64,000 nucleotides of DNA from Nitrospirota bacterium (GTDB taxonomy: Bacteria; Nitrospirota; Nitrospiria; JACQBZ01), in NCBI GenBank assembly GCA_016194285.1, contig JACQBZ010000028.1, forward strand, positions 25,320 to 89,319, written 5' to 3'. Below, in pieces: positions 5,048 to 61,310 of the stretch (position 1 is the first letter of the stretch; every line of letters starts with the position of its first letter). The translations under genes were made by a program, and so were the position numbers. The notes beneath the pieces were generated by a model. It was not told the origin of the DNA. It saw nothing but the letters and a program-made list of their open reading frames with translations, and ran no database searches.

Positions 5048-6802
5048 ATGGATGCGAAACTTCCAGGACCGGTCAAAAGTTCAGATTCCGATTCTAAAGT
5101 CGATGCGGATGTTGAGATTGATAAAGAAGAACTCAAATCGGTCAAAGATGTCCTTCTCCAGCTGACCAAAACGGCCAAAACCCTTAAAATCTATCTTCCC
5201 AATAATCCCATTTATCAAAAATTCCTGCAAGAACTTCAAAGCCGGTTCGATGCCCATCTTCGGGAATATGAGACGTTACGGCTTAAAATAAAGCAGTATG
5301 CCCTTTACTATAAAGGGCAAGTCGTTTATGAAAACACGAACCGACTGGAAAGCCTGGCTTTCAAGCTCTTTGTGGACGGCGTTCGAGACTTAACCTTCCT
5401 TGAGGGTATTGATAAAGACGAGATTACGAGCTTATTGGAGATTATCGGCCGGGAATACGATCCCAGCAACCCGGATGACGATATGGTGACGCTTTTATGG
5501 GAAAGACATTTTCCCCATATCAATTATTTAGTGGCCAGCGATTTCATCCAGGAAACCATCATGCCAAATAGGCCGCAGGAGGCGGCAATGTTTGAGAAAC
5601 TGGTTGAAAAAGAAAAATCCCAAATGAAGCCGGTGGCGGCGTCGGTTCAAACAACGCTCCAGGAACATCTGAGTCCCCAAATGGCCGTTCAGTCATCTCA
5701 GATTTTTGTTTTGTCAGAAGAGGAAATAGCCGCGATTAAGCAGCAAATGAAGGTGGAAAAATTTGCGAATCCGATCTCGACTCTCATGGGAATCTTGGCG
5801 GCCATTCTTCGGATCGAGAAGGACGATGCGGCGTTTTCCGAGATGGTTGAGATTCTCGATAATGTCTTGGAGACCCTGATGCTCCGAGGAGACTTCTGGC
5901 ACTCGAAGAAAATCCTGGAGCTCTTTCATGAACTCATGGAGCCGCAAAGAACCCTTCCGGAGTCTCAGCGGATTCGTTTAATTCAGGCGATCGATCGAGC
6001 GGGGGATCCACAGAGAATACGCGCGTTAGAGCCCGTGCTCAATCAGTGGGGAGCAAAAGAAACGGACGAGGTCTACGAATTCTGGTTGCTGCTCAACAAT
6101 AATGCCCTGCTCCCCTTGATCGAGCTTCTGGGCCGATTGACACAAATGAGAATGCGCCGTGTCATTTGCGAAGCCCTTGTTCATCTGGGAAAAGAAGATA
6201 TCGAACCTCTCATCCAAAAACTGGACGATCCTCGGTGGTTTGTGGTCAGAAATGTCGTTTATATTTTGGGCAAAATCGGACAGGAGAAGGTGATTGAGAA
6301 TTTCCGAAAATTGATTGGCCATAAGGAGGTTAAAGTTCGTAAGGAATTGCTTCATACCCTCGATGGAATGAAGGATAATCGGGCCCAGGAGCTGCTCGTG
6401 GGTTTTTTCAACGACCCGGAAAGTTCGCTTCGAATTCTGGCCGTTCGCAGCTTGGCGAGCCACAATTATCCAAGAGCCCTGGAGCCCTTAAAAAATATGA
6501 TCGATGAGCGGGAATTTGTTGTCCGGGATTTATACGAAAAGAAAGAAATCTTTGAGGCGTTGGGTAAAATAGGCGGCGCATCCATGGTGCCCAAGATGCG
6601 AAAACTCATCCGGCAAGGGGGCTCGGCTTGGTTTAAGAAAGCCGTCAAAGAAGAATTGGGACTGTGCGCAGTCATCACATTGAAACGCATTGGCACCGAA
6701 GATGCCGTTGCCGCATTACAAGAAGGGCAAAACCTGTCCAGCAAGGTCATTCGAGAAGCCTGTGTAAAAGCCCTGAGCGAGATCGGGAAATCCCATGGTT
6801 AA
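5048..6802 (+). CDS. HEAT/PBS-lyase-like repeat protein
   Basis: 584 aa with repeated ...VR..A...LG.IG... HEAT-like units in the C-terminal half. Its 3' end overlaps the HD-GYP gene by 8 nt, suggesting an operon. Confidence 0.6.
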   Translation: MDAKLPGPVKSSDSDSKVDADVEIDKEELKSVKDVLLQLTKTAKTLKIYLPNNPIYQKFLQELQSRFDAHLREYETLRLKIKQYALYYKGQVVYENTNRLESLAFKLFVDGVRDLTFLEGIDKDEITSLLEIIGREYDPSNPDDDMVTLLWERHFPHINYLVASDFIQETIMPNRPQEAAMFEKLVEKEKSQMKPVAASVQTTLQEHLSPQMAVQSSQIFVLSEEEIAAIKQQMKVEKFANPISTLMGILAAILRIEKDDAAFSEMVEILDNVLETLMLRGDFWHSKKILELFHELMEPQRTLPESQRIRLIQAIDRAGDPQRIRALEPVLNQWGAKETDEVYEFWLLLNNNALLPLIELLGRLTQMRMRRVICEALVHLGKEDIEPLIQKLDDPRWFVVRNVVYILGKIGQEKVIENFRKLIGHKEVKVRKELLHTLDGMKDNRAQELLVGFFNDPESSLRILAVRSLASHNYPRALEPLKNMIDEREFVVRDLYEKKEIFEALGKIGGASMVPKMRKLIRQGGSAWFKKAVKEELGLCAVITLKRIGTEDAVAALQEGQNLSSKVIREACVKALSEIGKSHG

Positions 6803-8279
6803 TGATCCTAAGCAGATAGAGCCGTTATCCACCCGGCAGCTCTTGTCCCCCAAAGGATTTGATGAAGAAATGGCTAAAAAGGGTAAAGAACTGGTCAACC
6901 AGTTCTATATCCTTATGAAGACTGCGCAGATCCATGGACCAACGAATGTGGCGATGGAAGCACCCATCGAAAATGTATTCCGGACTCTCCGAGGGGTTTG
7001 GCAATGGAGCGACGACGCCTATCTCCGATTGGAAGGGGATTACCTTTTCTTGGATGAACTCAAGCTCAAGATGGACATCGACGGTTTTACCAGCTTTACC
7101 TCGCTTATTGATGCGCTGAAGCAATTGCAGATCGGTGGCATCCTATTTAAAAAGTCCTCTACTACCGGAGATGAATTGAAGCGGTTCGTTTATATTCTCG
7201 TACAGACGGATCCCAATACCCCAGAGCCGTTTGAAGGGGTCACGCAACGGATGAAAACCATGGGGATTGCCAGCATCGAAGTTGATCCCTTTGAGGAAAA
7301 GAAGGAAAGTTTCGATGACATTCTCCGAGATACAAAAGAGATGGCCAAGAGCACCTATTTCAGAACGATGACGGCCGTTGCGGAGGTGATGGACAATATT
7401 AAACTAGGTCAGGCCGTGAGTGTGAAGCGGGCCAAGCGAGTGGTTCAGAGCATGGTGGACTTGTTGTTGCAGGAAGAGTCGACCCTCTTAGGACTAACGA
7501 CGCTCCGAAGTCATGACGAGTATACACATCACCATTCCGTGAATGTTTGCATTTTATCGCTGACCATGGGGCAGCGTCTGGGATACTCTAAAAAAGAGTT
7601 GACCGAGTTGGGAATCGCGGCCCTGTTTCATGATATGGGCAAGGCCAGCATTTCTCCCGAGATTTTGAACAAGCCGACGGACTTCACGGAAGAAGAGTGG
7701 CAGGTCATGCGTCGGCACCCCATTCTTGGCGTGAAATACGTCATCAAGCTAAAGGGCATCAACGAAATGACCATTCGGATGGTCACCGGTATATTCGAAC
7801 ATCACTTAAATTATGACTCGTCCGGCTACCCGAAGTTGGATACAAAGTGGGAACTCAGTCTTCTGGGAAGAATCATCAGCCTTGTAGACTGTTATGATGC
7901 CCTAACTTCTTCCAGGGTTTACAATCGTGTTCCTTATCCTCCGGATAAGGCGTTGAAATTTATGTTAAACAAAAGCGGACGAGCGTTTGATCCAATCTTG
8001 ATGAAAATTTTCGTCAACAGCATCGGCATTTTCCCGATCGGAACCTTGGTCCTCTTGGATACCAATGAACTGGGCGTTGTAGTCCAGACCAGTTCTTCTC
8101 CGGATCGAATAGATAGGCCAAAGGTCAAGATTATTGCGGACCCATCCGGCATGGAGGTTGACGGAGACGTGATAGACCTCTCTGAACTCAATGAAAAGAC
8201 AGGCCGTTTTAGGACGAGCATTCTCAAGATCATTGATTCCACAAAATATAAAGTCGACGTCAGCCGATACTTTTTGTAA
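6795..8279 (+). CDS. HD-GYP domain c-di-GMP phosphodiesterase with N-terminal domain of unknown function
   Basis: HHHSVNVC...LFHDMGK...HHLNYDSSGYPK contains the HD and GYP motifs. Confidence 0.8.
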   Translation: MVNDPKQIEPLSTRQLLSPKGFDEEMAKKGKELVNQFYILMKTAQIHGPTNVAMEAPIENVFRTLRGVWQWSDDAYLRLEGDYLFLDELKLKMDIDGFTSFTSLIDALKQLQIGGILFKKSSTTGDELKRFVYILVQTDPNTPEPFEGVTQRMKTMGIASIEVDPFEEKKESFDDILRDTKEMAKSTYFRTMTAVAEVMDNIKLGQAVSVKRAKRVVQSMVDLLLQEESTLLGLTTLRSHDEYTHHHSVNVCILSLTMGQRLGYSKKELTELGIAALFHDMGKASISPEILNKPTDFTEEEWQVMRRHPILGVKYVIKLKGINEMTIRMVTGIFEHHLNYDSSGYPKLDTKWELSLLGRIISLVDCYDALTSSRVYNRVPYPPDKALKFMLNKSGRAFDPILMKIFVNSIGIFPIGTLVLLDTNELGVVVQTSSSPDRIDRPKVKIIADPSGMEVDGDVIDLSELNEKTGRFRTSILKIIDSTKYKVDVSRYFL

Positions 8280-39257: not shown

Positions 39258-39374
39258 GCATTCGTGACCGCCGGCAAGGAGGCCCGCACCTGCTGACCGC
39301 GTTCCTGGCCGATCGCTCACACTCCGCTAAGATCATTGAGTTTTTTTGAAATTTGTTCTCGCCCACCTCTTGCC

Positions 39375-39402
39375 TTGACAAAATACAGGGCCCTGCTAAT
39401 CT
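39375..39402 (+). promoter_or_regulatory. sigma70-like promoter TTGACA-16-TAATCT
   Basis: ttgaca at 39375-39380 and taatct at 39397-39402. Confidence 0.45.
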
Positions 39403-39424
39403 TTTATTAGACAGCTGAATCGAT

Positions 39425-39515
39425 CCAAGAAAAACGCAAACCAGTCGAAAGGCTGGGACGCAAAGCTTCAAGGCTTCGCCTTCAGCGATGAAGGCATGCT
39501 AGTTGGGCTGCCCTG
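39425..39515 (+). ncRNA. Probable cyclic-di-GMP-I (GEMM) riboswitch aptamer
   Basis: ACGCAAACCAGUCGAAAGGCUGGGACGCAAAGC matches the GEMM-I core (GCAAACC-stem-GAAA-stem-GGGACGCAAAGCC, cf. Vc2). The compensatory P1 pairs are CCAGUC/GGCUGG. Confidence 0.6.
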
Positions 39516-39544
39516 GATTAACAAAAGAATGTTTTTCCATGCGT

Positions 39545-39578
39545 AGCCCATTTCTGAAAAGAAATGGGCTTTTTTATT
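39545..39578 (+). terminator. Intrinsic terminator (expression platform of the riboswitch)
   Basis: AGCCCAUUUC-ugaaaa-GAAAUGGGCU followed by UUUUUUAUU, about 80 nt upstream of the lipoprotein start codon. Confidence 0.7.
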
Positions 39579-39659
39579 GCGGATCTGCGGGCGACGGTTC
39601 GATTCGGAGGATGAGGTTAAAGCACTTAACCGAAAGTCCACTGGGAGGAGGCAAAGAAA

Positions 39660-42209
39660 ATGAAGAAGATGCTCGCAACCGCGTTGGTTTCAATGATCTG
39701 CGCGTTGGGGATCACCGCCTGCAGCGGAGGGGGCGGCAGTTCATCGGGAAGCGCCGGAGGTTCCGTGACCGGCTTCAGCGTGCCGACCGAGATATCGGCC
39801 GTGCCGACGAATCAGTCCGGGGGGGGTGTTCAGGCGACCTTGAAATCCAAGCTCGTCGCCTTGCAGGCGGCGACCGATCCTGGAACGGATTACAGCAACG
39901 CGAAGACCGTAAAGTTCGTGGAGGAGCGCACGCTTGAACAGTTTGATATCATCGAGCAGATCATGAAGGCGTTGGCTCAAACGAAATACGCCGACCCGGC
40001 GAACGTCAATCAAGGGCCCTACAAGGCCATGATCGCCTGGCAGGACAACCAAAACGGTGTTGAAACTAAAACGCTGGAGCCCTGGGTGGTGGATTCCAGC
40101 ATGATCGTGGAAAACGGTCAAAACGTGAATCGCGTGCAGGTCTGGGTGGAAGAGCCGGATGAAATGGGAGGAACGCGCGTCGTCAAAGCCGAATTTAAGA
40201 TCTATGCCTCGGCGACCCAACGGAGCGACGGTTCCTATCAGGATTACGGCGTCTGGACACTGAACGTCAAATTTGACGACGCGGCGACCTCCTTCTTCGC
40301 GGCCGACGCCTCGATCGGACCGAACGGGGAAACGATTCTCAAGCTCCACGAGAACTCGATTGAAAACCAGGTGCTGCATGTGGCGAAAGCCATATTGAAC
40401 AAATCCGACACGCAGGGGTTCGGACAGGTGCTCTATCCGGACTGGAGCAACTGCATGGATCTGAACTGCATTCCGACGTCGGTGACGGCGAAGTACGTAT
40501 ACGACGCGAATGATCTCGGGGTGCAAAAAGGAAGCGATCCCGTGGCCTATAAAGACCGCAACACCGTCGTCGAGATGACACACCGCTACGGGCTGTTTGA
40601 CAGCGTCACGGGCGATGATGTCATGAGGACGAAGTCGTTCGGTTTCCCGGTCCAGTTTACACTCAACGGCGTGAATCAATTCGCCTATTACGGCGCCTGG
40701 CAGGGGCGGCATCAGCTCTGGGCCGGACAGGGCGCGACGGTGCCGGCCGGGACGGTCGTGACCCGTCAGGACCGGGGCTCGAATCAGGCCCCCGAGACGT
40801 ATACCGTATCGGCGCCTTTTATCGGGACCTTGACGAAGCGGACGTTGGTGCTGGCCGATATCAACGATCTCCTGAACATTCCCGTGGAGACCTGGGTTAA
40901 TATGAATTCCAACCTTCAGTATGACGGTTCTCAATGGGTGGATTGCAAGAATCCGGACTTCAGCACCTTCCCGCCCACCTGCGGCGCGGGATCGGCTCCG
41001 TTCACCGATTTCAGCTCTCTGACGTTCAATCCCAACGACCATCGGAAGTTCATCGGGATTAACCGATGGGACAACGCCAGCCAGACGAACCTCGACTATG
41101 TTTATGAGTCCAACGGACCGTCGGGCGCCGGGTTCTATGTCGCGACCCGTGATCCGAACACCGGAAACCTGACCCCCACCGCAACATTATTTTCTCCGGT
41201 CGCCGGGGATCAGTTGTGGGTGAATATCGGCGGATCGATCTATATCATGTATACCGGAACTGGTGCGACCGGCTGGGTGCAAAAAACGCTGCTAAGTTTC
41301 GATGACAGTACTTGGACTCCCGTCTTTGATCCTACAGGAGACGTTGATTATACCCTGCCGCTGGATCGGGAATATTACATCAACAACAGCGGGGCCAATT
41401 ATGTCGTCAAAAGAACGGCGTCCGGATACGATGTCAAGATCGAACTCCAGACCGTGGCCAATCCGGTCAATGCGACCTCGTTCCTTGATCCGAACACACG
41501 GTTTATGGTCCAATGGGCGGCCTGGGGGGACGGCGTCAATTCAACCTATCGGTTTGAAACATCGAGCGGCAGCCCCGATTTTCTGAAGCTCGTTTATAAC
41601 ACGGTGGGATCCAATGACGCCAACCTGCTGAATGCCTCGGGTCAGCCGGTCCAAGCCGGCGATGTTCTCGCTCAAGGCCAATGGGGACTGATGGCCTATG
41701 TGAATGGCGTCAGCACCGGCATTCAGTACAACTGGGAATACCCGCGAGCGGGCGAGACGTGGGGAATACTGACTTACCTGATCGATTCCAACAATGCCTA
41801 CAAGCTGTTGGATGATCCGATCCGGTTGGACCCGATGACCCTGACCAACAACGGGGGCATTTCCAAAGTCTTGTCGCTACAGTACGACGGCTGGATGCAC
41901 GGTCTGCCGGATCTGTATGAAGATCTGAGAAAGAATGATTTTGTGATGACGGCCGATATTTCCAGCAAGATCATCAATATTCCGGACGGGACGGTCGCGA
42001 CCGATTCGATCGATCCGGCCAAGAGCTACCTCATCAAGCCGCTCGAGATCAGCCAGTTCCTCAACGTGGTGGCCGATCCCGGCACGCTGGATATGACGGT
42101 CGCCGACACCGTGGATCTCTCGACTGTTCCAAATTTCGTCGAGCATAACATGGGACCGATGCCGCCGGTGACGGGGGTGAAGTACTCGGAGGGAATCTTG
42201 GTGCAGTAA
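39660..42209 (+). CDS. Large (849 aa) domain-less cell-surface lipoprotein under putative c-di-GMP riboswitch control
   Basis: SD ggaggaggcaaagaaaATG. Lipobox LGITAC plus a Gly/Ser-rich linker. I recognise no conserved domain. Confidence 0.7.
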   Translation: MKKMLATALVSMICALGITACSGGGGSSSGSAGGSVTGFSVPTEISAVPTNQSGGGVQATLKSKLVALQAATDPGTDYSNAKTVKFVEERTLEQFDIIEQIMKALAQTKYADPANVNQGPYKAMIAWQDNQNGVETKTLEPWVVDSSMIVENGQNVNRVQVWVEEPDEMGGTRVVKAEFKIYASATQRSDGSYQDYGVWTLNVKFDDAATSFFAADASIGPNGETILKLHENSIENQVLHVAKAILNKSDTQGFGQVLYPDWSNCMDLNCIPTSVTAKYVYDANDLGVQKGSDPVAYKDRNTVVEMTHRYGLFDSVTGDDVMRTKSFGFPVQFTLNGVNQFAYYGAWQGRHQLWAGQGATVPAGTVVTRQDRGSNQAPETYTVSAPFIGTLTKRTLVLADINDLLNIPVETWVNMNSNLQYDGSQWVDCKNPDFSTFPPTCGAGSAPFTDFSSLTFNPNDHRKFIGINRWDNASQTNLDYVYESNGPSGAGFYVATRDPNTGNLTPTATLFSPVAGDQLWVNIGGSIYIMYTGTGATGWVQKTLLSFDDSTWTPVFDPTGDVDYTLPLDREYYINNSGANYVVKRTASGYDVKIELQTVANPVNATSFLDPNTRFMVQWAAWGDGVNSTYRFETSSGSPDFLKLVYNTVGSNDANLLNASGQPVQAGDVLAQGQWGLMAYVNGVSTGIQYNWEYPRAGETWGILTYLIDSNNAYKLLDDPIRLDPMTLTNNGGISKVLSLQYDGWMHGLPDLYEDLRKNDFVMTADISSKIINIPDGTVATDSIDPAKSYLIKPLEISQFLNVVADPGTLDMTVADTVDLSTVPNFVEHNMGPMPPVTGVKYSEGILVQ

Positions 42210-58167: not shown

Positions 58168-59886
58168 ATGACGATCCCTCTTCGTGTTTTGATCGTCGAA
58201 GATTCGGTGGACGATACAGATCTGCTGCTTCGGGAATTGCGGCTCGGCGGTTACGAGCCGACCCATGAGCGCGTCGAGACACCCGAAGCCATGAACGCGG
58301 CACTGGACCAACAAATGTGGGATATCGTCTTCGGAGATTACTCCATGCCGCACTTCAACGGCATGGCGGCCTTGAAGTTATTGAGGGAGAGAGGGCTCGA
58401 TCTGCCCTTTATTTTTATATCGGGGACGATTGGTGAAGATACCGCGGTGGCTTCGATGAAGGCCGGCGCAAACGACTACGTGATCAAAGGCAACCTGAAG
58501 CGCCTCCTTCCGGCGGTCGACCGTGAACTGAAGGAAGCCGCGGTGCGGCGCGAGCACCGGCAGGCCGAAGAAACGATCCGGTACCTGGCCTATTACGATC
58601 CCCTCACCGGCCTTCCCAATCGGACTTCGCTCCTAGACCGGCTGCACCTTGCGATTACGGAAGGGTCGGGCCAAAAAAAATCCGTCGCTCTTCTATTAAT
58701 GGATTTGGACCACTTCAAGGAGGTCAATGATACGCTAGGGCATCATCGCGGCGATATTCTGTTGCAGCAGGTCGGATCGCGACTGCGGGCCGTGTTGAGG
58801 CCATCCGATCTCGTCGCGCGTCTGGGGGGGGATGAGTTTGCGGTGTTGCTGCCGTTGGCGTCATCCCAGCATGCGGCCCAAGTGGCCCAGAAGATCCTGG
58901 AGGCGTTGGAGCCGCCCTTTATGATTGACGGGTTGCCCGTTGCGGTTGAAGCCGGTGTCGGTATTGCAGTCTGTCCCGATCACGGAACGAATCCGAACAG
59001 CCTGATGCAGCGGGCCGATGTGGCGATGTACGCGGCGAAGCAGACCGGCAGCGGCTACATCGTTTATGATACCCACTATGACCGGCACAGTCCCCGCCGA
59101 CTGTCGCTGATCGGAGAATTGCGCCAGGCCATCGAGCGGGACCAGCTTTTTCTACACTTCCAGCCGAAGATCGACCTGAAAACCCGTCGGGTCATCGGGG
59201 TCGAGGCGTTGGTGCGATGGCGGCATCCCGAGCATGGGTTCGTCCCGCCGGATCAATTCATCGAGCCGGCGGAGCAGACCGGGCTGATCAAGCCGCTGAC
59301 GCTGTGGATCTTCAATGCGGCGCGGCGGGAAGGGTTGATGTGGCAGCAGGCCGGGATCCACCTTTCAATGTCGGTGAACCTATCGGCTCGGAACCTTCAT
59401 GATCCGCACTTTCCGGACCAGATCTCCGAGATCCTTCAAACCACGGGCGGGAAGCCGGATGAGCTGGAACTGGAGATTACCGAGAGCGCGATCATGAATG
59501 ATCCGGCCCGTGCGTTGGAAGCGATCACGCGGCTCCGGGCGATGGGTATCCGGTTTGCGATCGACGATTTCGGAATCGGCTATTCCTCGCTGGCCTATCT
59601 TAAACGATTGCCGGTGGACGCGATCAAAATCGACAAGTCGTTCGTGATCAACATGATCGAAAATCAAAACGATGCCGTGATCGTTCGTTCCACGATCGAC
59701 CTGGCCCACAATCTGGGCCTTAAGGTGATCGCGGAGGGCGTGGAGAAACAGGATATCTGGGATCGGCTGTCGGCCCTGGGCTGTGATGCCGCACAGGGCT
59801 ATTACATGAGCCGCCCGATGCCGGCCGAGGAACTCACCCGCTGGTTGTCCGACTCGCCGTATGGTTTGAATTGCCGTGCCGTATGA
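58168..59886 (+). CDS. Response regulator with REC-GGDEF-EAL domains (c-di-GMP turnover), paralog 1
   Basis: N-terminal REC (VLIVEDS.DD), an intact GGDEF motif (RLGGDEFAV) and an intact EAL motif (EALVRW). Confidence 0.9.
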   Translation: MTIPLRVLIVEDSVDDTDLLLRELRLGGYEPTHERVETPEAMNAALDQQMWDIVFGDYSMPHFNGMAALKLLRERGLDLPFIFISGTIGEDTAVASMKAGANDYVIKGNLKRLLPAVDRELKEAAVRREHRQAEETIRYLAYYDPLTGLPNRTSLLDRLHLAITEGSGQKKSVALLLMDLDHFKEVNDTLGHHRGDILLQQVGSRLRAVLRPSDLVARLGGDEFAVLLPLASSQHAAQVAQKILEALEPPFMIDGLPVAVEAGVGIAVCPDHGTNPNSLMQRADVAMYAAKQTGSGYIVYDTHYDRHSPRRLSLIGELRQAIERDQLFLHFQPKIDLKTRRVIGVEALVRWRHPEHGFVPPDQFIEPAEQTGLIKPLTLWIFNAARREGLMWQQAGIHLSMSVNLSARNLHDPHFPDQISEILQTTGGKPDELELEITESAIMNDPARALEAITRLRAMGIRFAIDDFGIGYSSLAYLKRLPVDAIKIDKSFVINMIENQNDAVIVRSTIDLAHNLGLKVIAEGVEKQDIWDRLSALGCDAAQGYYMSRPMPAEELTRWLSDSPYGLNCRAV

Positions 59887-60245
59887 TCGGCCTAAAACTT
59901 GACTTTCATCATCCGAGGATATAATGCTACTCCATCGGTAAATACCTTCGGATCATCAAGCGAATTGTTCTCTTGCCGTTGGGGTTCGGCTTTATACGGA
60001 TTCAAACCGTTCTGTTGAAGGTCGGCGAATGCTTTTGGAGGGTTAAACCATGCCCCTTCAAGGTGATCCTCATCTCTTCATTCAGGTTCTCTTCGAGAAT
60101 TGCAAGCATCGTCGTCATCCTGAGCCGAAGTCATCGGCTGACGCTTTGGCATCCCGTATCATCCCAACCCCATATAAAAAAATGCTCAACGAGGTGGAAA
60201 CCATACGGGCTTCCTCATTCCGCTGTTGACTCGATGGGAACGGGT

Positions 60246-61310
60246 ATGGACCCGAAGAATGCACTTCGCTACGCATGGCAACCCTATGTCGTTGCCATAG
60301 CCCTTATCGCTGCGGCTGCCGCACTGCGGCTATGGCCACTGCAAGCTCTCGGAGTGCGCCTTGCCTGGCTGACGTTCTATCCGGCCGTAGTGGCCGCGGC
60401 TCTCTACGGGGGCTTTTCTGCTGGCTTGCTGGGGACATTTCTCAGCTGTCTCACCCTACTATATTTATTGCCAGCATTCGTTGACCAACCCTTCATCCGA
60501 GATTCCGTTGACTGGTTGGGCCTGGCGGTCTTCTTCATAACGTGCACGATGATCTCATCCGTCGCCGAGGCGATGCGTCGCGCCCAGGCACGAGCGAAGC
60601 AGGCCAAGGAGCAACTCAAAACCGCCAACCGCAAGTTGGAAGCGGCCAACAAAGAGTTGGAGGCCTTCAGCTATTCCGTCTCTCACGATCTGCGCGCGCC
60701 GCTCCGAAGCATTGATGGTTTCAGCCAGGCACTGCTGGAGGATTATTCCGAAAAGCTGGACGTGGAAGGGAAGGACCACCTTCAGCGCGTGCGCGCGGCC
60801 ACCCGGCGCATGGCCCAGCTCATTGACGACATGCTCAATCTCTCCCGCGTGACGCGCTCCGAGATGCAGCGCGAGAAAGTGGATCTGAGTACGCTGGCGC
60901 AAACGATCGCCGCGGAATTGAAAAAGACGCAGCCCGAACGTCACGTGACATTCGTCATTGCGCCCGGGCTGGTCGCGGAGGGGGATGCGCGGCTGCTTCG
61001 GGCCGTCCTGGAGAACCTGTTTTCCAACGCCTATAAGTTTACGCGAAAGCAGCCCCAGGCTAAAATCGAGTTCGGTCTGACACGGCAGGATGGACAACCG
61101 GTCTATTTCGTGCGCGACAACGGCGCCGGCTTAGACATGGCCTATGCGGACAAGCTGTTCGGGGTGTTTCAGAGGCTGCACGGGATTGCCGAGTTTGAAG
61201 GCACCGGAATCGGGCTCGCCACCGTTCAACGGATCATCCATCGCCACGGCGGGCGCATCTGGGCCGAGGGCGCGGTGGAAAAAGGAGCCACGATCTACTT
61301 CACCCTGTAA
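60246..61310 (+). CDS. Sensor histidine kinase (N-terminal 4-TM DUF4118-like domain, coiled coil, HisKA, HATPase_c)
   Basis: [17 protein letters not shown]-box and G-boxes (DNGAGLD; GTGIGLA). The start could be ATG 60234 or 60246; the sequence gggaacgggtATG also precedes the PAS gene at 63501. Confidence 0.85.

Follow-up and report, generated by a model that had tools for sequence, protein, structure and literature searches.

We examined a 64,000-nucleotide (nt) stretch of DNA from a Nitrospirota bacterium (assembly GCA_016194285.1, contig JACQBZ010000028.1, positions 25,320 to 89,319 of the forward strand; hereafter the window), and focused on the leader of a gene encoding an 849-residue lipoprotein. 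This leader contains a genuine member of the GEMM-I (c-di-GMP-I) structural family of riboswitches. Our reading, to which we assign a probability of roughly 0.8, is that the element is a GEMM-I OFF switch with a design resembling that of Cd1 from Clostridioides difficile, and that its ligand is most likely cyclic di-GMP (c-di-GMP), for which binding is probably weaker or release faster than in relatives with a G at the position equivalent to G20 of the Vibrio cholerae aptamer Vc2. A preliminary description of this DNA had proposed a c-di-GMP-I riboswitch with a promoter and a terminator at this site. To this we add a direction of control, which that description did not state and which is probably OFF, with an antiterminator that shows covariation, and the presence of a non-canonical C at the position that determines ligand specificity. 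The features of the leader and its gene, with the evidence for each, are as follows.

39375-39380, plus strand: -35 hexamer TTGACA (sequence; conserved in orthologous leaders)
39394-39402, plus strand: extended -10 element TGcTAATCT (TG 39394-39395, TAATCT 39397-39402), 16 nt after the -35 hexamer (sequence; TGnTAnnnT in orthologues)
39423-39518, plus strand: GEMM-I aptamer with outer P1 helix (RF01051 match at 39425-39515; covariation; P1 in the aptamer-only fold)
39435, plus strand: C at the equivalent of Vc2 G20, the contact to the ligand's alpha base (mismatch at model position 11 in the cmscan alignment)
39441-39456, plus strand: first hairpin, CCAGUC-GAAA-GGCUGG, with a GNRA tetraloop at 39447-39450 (sequence, cmscan)
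39462, plus strand: A47 equivalent (invariant in the leader alignment)
39464-39509, plus strand: second aptamer hairpin (cmscan, leader alignments)
39504-39550, plus strand: antiterminator stem-loop (minimum-energy structure for both 39409-39556 and 39495-39556; covariation)
39511, plus strand: C92 equivalent, also a member of the antiterminator, where it pairs with G39543 (invariant in the leader alignment)
39545-39578, plus strand: intrinsic terminator, with an 11-base-pair stem (39545-39570), a GAAA loop and then the U-tract TTTTTTATT (terminator scan; full-length folds)
39644-39652, plus strand: Shine-Dalgarno-like sequence GGGAGGAGG (sequence)
39660-42209, plus strand: 849-residue lipoprotein gene, its product having a signal peptide and a lipobox, LGITA-C (open reading frame, sequence features)

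Concerning the identity of the element, a cmscan search with Rfam 15 returned RF01051 (c-di-GMP-I) as the sole match at gathering level in the whole window (39425-39515, plus strand). The match covered model positions 1-87 of 87, with an E-value of 1.3e-11 and a score of 69.7 bits, about twice the gathering score of 35. When 39300-39700 was scanned permissively (E up to 10), RF01051 outscored all other members of its clan, and no match was found for c-di-GMP-II (RF01786), which had been suggested as a control. The family proposed in the preliminary description was thus borne out. Weak matches over the terminator, including SSRC10 and PyrR, were below threshold, and were rejected as products of a generic hairpin followed by a U-tract. 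The conserved core ACGCAAACCAGTCGAAAGGCTGGGACGCAAAGC occupies 39434-39466, and the aptamer-only fold predicts an outer P1 in which 39423-39427 (ATCCA) pairs with 39514-39518 (TGGAT). Apart from position 20, all invariant and near-invariant columns of the aptamer are intact in the window, including the equivalents of A47 and C92.

We then made use of the loci of lipoprotein relatives (80 loci, one genome per species). A covariance model was built from the first 20 leaders and run on the loci of the relatives. It detected the element 5′ of the gene for the lipoprotein orthologue in 23 loci from Nitrospirota, one of which (L006) carries two copies, and in one gammaproteobacterial locus. The covariation set consisted of 25 leader sequences, 24 of them distinct. 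Standard pairs accounted for 97.8% of the alignment cells, and 17 of the 25 pairs were changed on both sides; an earlier leader alignment had displayed compensatory change at 12 of 25. In the first hairpin, compensatory change was observed at three of the six pairs. None of 500 shuffled controls attained the observed values of pairing and covariation, and pairing fell to 27-43% when the partners were slid by 1-3 columns. The pairings are therefore kept in orthologous loci, with compensatory changes, as the preliminary description had anticipated. The covariation, its controls and the survey of loci together indicate that both the structure of the aptamer and its association with the lipoprotein gene are real and conserved.

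The locus with two copies, from a Nitrospiria metagenome-assembled genome (MAG; JBHHXH010000054), harbours two complete riboswitch units in tandem (1032-1132 and 1304-1404) 5′ of the orthologous lipoprotein gene. Each unit has its own aptamer, antiterminator and terminator. The aptamers are identical, the spacers differ, and a single TTGACA promoter is present at 999.

The arrangement of promoter, aptamer and terminator described earlier was also recovered. Of 19 orthologous leaders, 17 have the -35 hexamer at equal distance, as TTGAC[AT]. A generic promoter scan made no call here because the -10 hexamer agrees with TATAAT at only three of six positions; the promoter call therefore rests on conservation. 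Transcription would start near 39409. The terminator at 39545-39578 was called by the terminator scan, is contained in the minimum-energy fold of the full-length window leader, and lies 3′ of the aptamer without overlapping it. Of 23 orthologous leaders, 22 keep its 3′ arm, GAAATGGGCTTTTTT. The 5′ untranslated region further contains a small perfect hairpin, GGTTAA-AGCAC-TTAACC (39616-39632), 3′ of the terminator and ahead of the ribosome-binding site.

The direction of control follows from a second structure that competes with the bound aptamer. The 3′ strand of the aptamer is complementary to the 5′ half of the terminator together with the 2-3 bases 5′ of it. The base of the resulting antiterminator comprises 8 base pairs between 39504-39511 (UGGGCUGC) and 39543-39550 (GUAGCCCA), and the first of these strands consists of the six final bases in the 3′ arm of the second hairpin, followed by the 5′ neighbour of C92 and by the C92 equivalent. 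Above this base, C39512 pairs with G39541, 39514-39517 (the 3′ strand of P1) with 39536-39539, and 39520-39523 with 39530-39533 in an apical stem. Among 22 orthologues, pairing of the 8-base-pair helix reaches 95.5% in register, compared with 26-46% when the register is shifted. At position 6 of the helix, 6 orthologues have T-A and 16 have C-G; at position 7, 10 have G-C, 7 A-T, 3 G-T and 2 T-T. Since the terminator stem does not include position 7, the covariation there cannot be attributed to terminator pairing. When transcripts were folded with RNAfold only to 39556, a point at which the 3′ arm of the terminator has not yet been made, the antiterminator hairpin was the minimum-energy structure, and at least six of the eight basal pairs were present in the truncated-transcript folds of all 22 orthologues.

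Because P1, the lower part of the second hairpin and C92 are all required in the bound aptamer, ligand binding should exclude the antiterminator and permit termination. The riboswitch is thus most likely an OFF switch, as judged from these structures. In the mechanism that we propose, a sigma-70-type promoter (39375-39402) would start a leader of ~250 nt, whose first ~95 nt would fold into the cyclic-dinucleotide aptamer, and capture of the ligand would be decided while the polymerase makes the next ~30 nt. If no ligand is present, the aptamer 3′ strand (39504-39517) would pair anew with 39536-39550 to form the long antiterminator hairpin, consuming the 5′ half of the terminator and allowing read-through into the lipoprotein gene. 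If ligand is bound, P1, the junction and C92 would be locked, the antiterminator could not nucleate, and the hairpin at 39545-39570 would form with its U-tract, so that transcription would end near 39577. An ON switch, in which ligand binding prevents termination, we regard as highly improbable: no strand other than the 3′ strand of the aptamer, including C92, is complementary to the 5′ half of the terminator, and the bound state sequesters this strand. In addition, aptamer and terminator are free of overlap, and the bound state therefore contains nothing that would block the terminator.

The point on which the element departs from its family is the base that reads the ligand. In Vc2, G20 reads the alpha base of the ligand and C92 is the Watson-Crick partner of the beta guanine (PMC6140456), while A47 intercalates between the two ligand bases (PMC9049102). 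The pair adjoining the ligand is G21-C46 (PMC9049102), which places G20 directly 5′ of the GC of GCAAACC, at position 11 of the Rfam model. In the window this base is C39435, and the pocket triad at positions 20/47/92 is C-A-C. RNAs of the GEMM-Ib group, which sense 3′,3′-cGAMP (cyclic GMP-AMP), have A in place of G20 (PMC6140456; PMC9481103), and in-line probing with aptamers from Desulfobacca has borne out the rule of G versus A at this position (PMC9481103). In pairing with A-alpha, A20 engages N1 and N6; for the binding of c-di-GMP it is protonated (PMC6140456). C39435 corresponds neither to the G20 of c-di-GMP-selective aptamers nor to the A20 of GEMM-Ib. This qualifies the earlier claim of a c-di-GMP-responsive leader, of which the riboswitch family stood, with c-di-GMP as the most likely of several possible ligands.

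Among the 25 related leaders, position 20 is G in 21 and A in two (L001 and L020), and C occurs only in the window. L001 is the closest relative, with a protein 88% identical, and apart from its A at position 20 the aptamer is conserved. L020 (3770-3875; Nitrospirae MAG JACQBY010000136) combines A20 with a compensatory U-A pair replacing C22-G45 beside the pocket; its leader is devoid of the conserved GAAATGGGCTTTTTT terminator, implying a different expression platform. We also considered whether C20 pairs with the nucleotide 5′ of C92 (G39510), and rejected this, as relatives have G, A or U there regardless of position 20.

Aptamers with a pyrimidine at position 20 are present elsewhere. A metagenome scan with the pattern YGCAAAC-N5-GAAA-N5-GGACGCAAAG, in which a pyrimidine is demanded at position 20, gave matches in at least 120 stretches. 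Among the matches listed (80 loci, L081-L160, with 116 model hits), the base was C in 65 and U in 15. In an unbiased sample of viral contigs, collected with the core pattern without the preceding base, the 19 distinct sequences comprised 16 with G, 3 with A and none with a pyrimidine. Pyrimidine-20 aptamers are thus a minority, yet numerous in absolute terms. One recurrent C20 group precedes a gene for a ~150-residue FN3 lipoprotein in Steroidobacteraceae-like soil bacteria. In order to avoid the selection bias at position 20, leaders of this gene (L223-L235) were gathered through protein homology alone. Each of the five distinct leaders obtained, whose proteins were as little as 49% identical, had C20, indicating that C20 is conserved in at least one clade unrelated to that of the window. 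C20 is presumably a functional state in the FN3-lipoprotein clade, and comparison of these sequences suggests that the C20 of the window is probably functional as well. In one of the scanned loci (L081, Ga0079305_1000707, 5307-6049), seven GEMM-I matches with mixed position-20 bases lie head to tail within ~750 nt, an unusually long tandem array.

Several points weigh against the reading of a c-di-GMP-responsive OFF switch. The equivalent of G20 is a C; mutation of G20 in Vc2 is reported to weaken c-di-GMP binding 30,000-fold, from a picomolar starting point (cited from a secondary source, PMC4744006), and the combined G20U and C92U mutations disrupt binding in vivo (bioRxiv 10.1101/617340). 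The whole clade, moreover, deviates from the family consensus in its tetraloop-receptor sequence. In type 1 GEMM RNAs, a GNRA tetraloop on the first hairpin has its receptor in the second. Here the GAAA loop is present, and the putative receptor region of the second hairpin is GCUUCG/CAUGC (39474-39478 and 39495-39499), compared with CUAAG/UAUG in the Rfam consensus, and UC stands where the AA platform is expected. As this sequence is invariant in 24 Nitrospirota leaders, its distribution suggests a clade-specific variant of the receptor. Finally, thermodynamic folds of the whole leader failed to give the full aptamer, as is expected of a fold that ligand and tertiary contacts stabilise, and we did not count them in its support. 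With respect to the mutations, those at G20 and C92 mainly affect the off-rate and not the on-rate (bioRxiv 10.1101/617340). Given that a transcriptional switch hinges chiefly on the on-rate, a C20 aptamer could still answer c-di-GMP at sub-micromolar to micromolar levels. We therefore consider c-di-GMP to be the most likely ligand, with weaker binding or faster release than in G20 relatives probable because the reader of the alpha site is C; sensing of cGAMP, or of both ligands, is possible.

One alternative to this reading keeps the architecture and the OFF logic and assumes that the physiological ligand is cGAMP, or that the RNA is bispecific. On chemical grounds, the Watson-Crick edge of cytosine, with N4 amino as donor and N3 as acceptor, matches the donor/acceptor pattern of adenine (N6 amino and N1). 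C20 could thus read the Hoogsteen edge of adenine as A20 does, and guanine only if protonated (C+), as shown for A20. A pyrimidine is ~2 Å shorter than a purine, however, and the isosteric argument is merely formal. The A20 of the closest relative and of L020, in aptamers that are otherwise conserved, would agree with a shift in ligand, and the conservation of C20 in an independent clade sampled by homology implies that C20 aptamers are under selection. On the other hand, no cGAMP synthase was seen in the 64-kb window, both GGDEF domains encoded there carry Asp rather than the Ser/Thr of Hypr enzymes, and our literature searches found no published test of C20. We regard this alternative as unlikely. 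A broader proposal, which we advance only tentatively and hold to be doubtful, is that pyrimidine-20 (mostly C) GEMM-I aptamers represent a natural, selected subclass whose recognition is unlike that of both characterised subclasses, with the window element as one member. Such RNAs may sense cGAMP or both ligands through a C.A or C+.G contact of the Hoogsteen type, or may sense another cyclic dinucleotide. If this were true, one orthologous leader family, with an A20 sister and G20 cousins, would show a switch of specificity in progress.

It could also be presumed that C39435 has no functional meaning, and arose lately as a neutral or slightly deleterious change, or is a single-nucleotide polymorphism at strain level or an error in the MAG consensus, leaving an RNA that binds poorly and mostly allows read-through. 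C is present in just one of the 25 related leaders, the exact gene is carried by a single contig, leaving the base without independent confirmation, and mutation of G20 in Vc2 reportedly weakens binding strongly (PMC4744006). The remainder of the leader speaks against this: all other invariant and near-invariant aptamer columns and the entire expression platform are intact, indicating that the element is not decaying. The sister leader has no G either, many natural aptamers carry C20 or U20, and a further clade conserves C20. An accidental origin of C39435 is, in our judgement, quite improbable, and the c-di-GMP-responsive OFF switch remains the reading that we favour.

As for the gene under control, the preliminary description had called the downstream product a giant lipoprotein. 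It is indeed a lipoprotein (lipobox LGITAC), but with 849 residues it is large rather than giant. The protein had no Pfam or NCBIfam match, and is identical to the hypothetical protein HY203_03500 of a groundwater Nitrospirae MAG. At E ≤ 0.001 we found 378 homologues. They occur in Nitrospirota, Candidatus Manganitrophaceae among them, in Anaeromyxobacter, and in MAGs of gamma- and deltaproteobacteria. The cultivated Candidatus Manganitrophus noduliformans has an orthologue (P0029) in this family; our literature searches turned up nothing relevant on c-di-GMP in Manganitrophus. Structure prediction gave an all-beta protein (predicted local distance difference test score 80), with a part that resembles outer-membrane barrels, and no convincing relative of this predicted fold was found among solved structures. 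A lipoprotein that is exported or located at the cell surface is in keeping with the genes usually found in GEMM regulons. As the next gene, encoding a MEKHLA-domain protein, is convergent, the riboswitch probably controls the lipoprotein gene alone. The proteins of cyclic-dinucleotide signalling that had been noted in the window, one of the HD-GYP type and two with REC-GGDEF-EAL domains, were all confirmed by domain search, as follows.

6795-8279: HD_5 (HD-GYP-type) protein
58168-59886: REC-GGDEF-EAL protein, one of two paralogues of 572 and 570 residues
61776-63488: REC-GGDEF-EAL protein, one of two paralogues of 572 and 570 residues

The two REC-GGDEF-EAL paralogues flank a histidine kinase gene (59973-61310). 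In both, the GGDEF, EAL and GHHRGD motifs are intact, and the canonical GHxxGD site carries Asp. Asp at this site is the residue of c-di-GMP-type enzymes, as opposed to the Hypr type. The presence of these genes of c-di-GMP turnover in the window counts in favour of our reading.

The family of the element, detectable with Rfam, and leaders of the OFF type that respond to c-di-GMP were already known, and the class and its mechanism are textbook knowledge. The element connects a widespread family of uncharacterised 850-residue lipoproteins in Nitrospirota, including Manganitrophaceae, with cyclic-dinucleotide signalling at the level of regulation, and provides an expression platform that is well resolved and supported by covariation. 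Moreover, the occurrence of G, A or C at the key specificity base within one orthologous leader family, together with the many aptamers with C or U at position 20, offers a testable entry to the effect of a pyrimidine on ligand choice.

Among known systems, the Rfam clan CL00126 includes the variants c-di-GMP-I-GGC and c-di-GMP-I-UAU, which are GEMM-I folds with altered ligand-contacting bases. The variant names GGC and UAU refer to positions 20/47/92. The window, with its triad of C-A-C, has RF01051 as its best model. Vc2 (PDB 3IRW) shares with the window the core of GCAAACC, GAAA hairpin and GGGACGCAAAGC, as well as the bases A47 and C92. The two differ at position 20, which is G in Vc2 and C in the window, and Vc2 has no intrinsic terminator and acts through RNA stability and translation (bioRxiv 10.1101/617340). 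The GEMM-Ib RNAs of Geobacter (Gs1761, Gm0970 and pilM) have the same fold and a specificity set at Vc2 position 20, where the closest relative of the window has their A. The window itself has C and not A, and characterised GEMM-Ib RNAs such as pilM are ON switches (PMC9262584). Cd1, from the leader of the flagellar operon of C. difficile, is an experimentally established c-di-GMP-I OFF switch (PMC9262584). It belongs to another phylum and regulates a different gene, and the window element is distinguished from it by a C instead of G as the reader of the alpha site, by a non-consensus tetraloop-receptor and by a logic deduced from structure. In design the two are alike: an intrinsic terminator comes after a GEMM-I aptamer, the aptamer 3′ strand and a switching strand make up the antiterminator, and the ligand favours, or in the case of the window would favour, the terminator.

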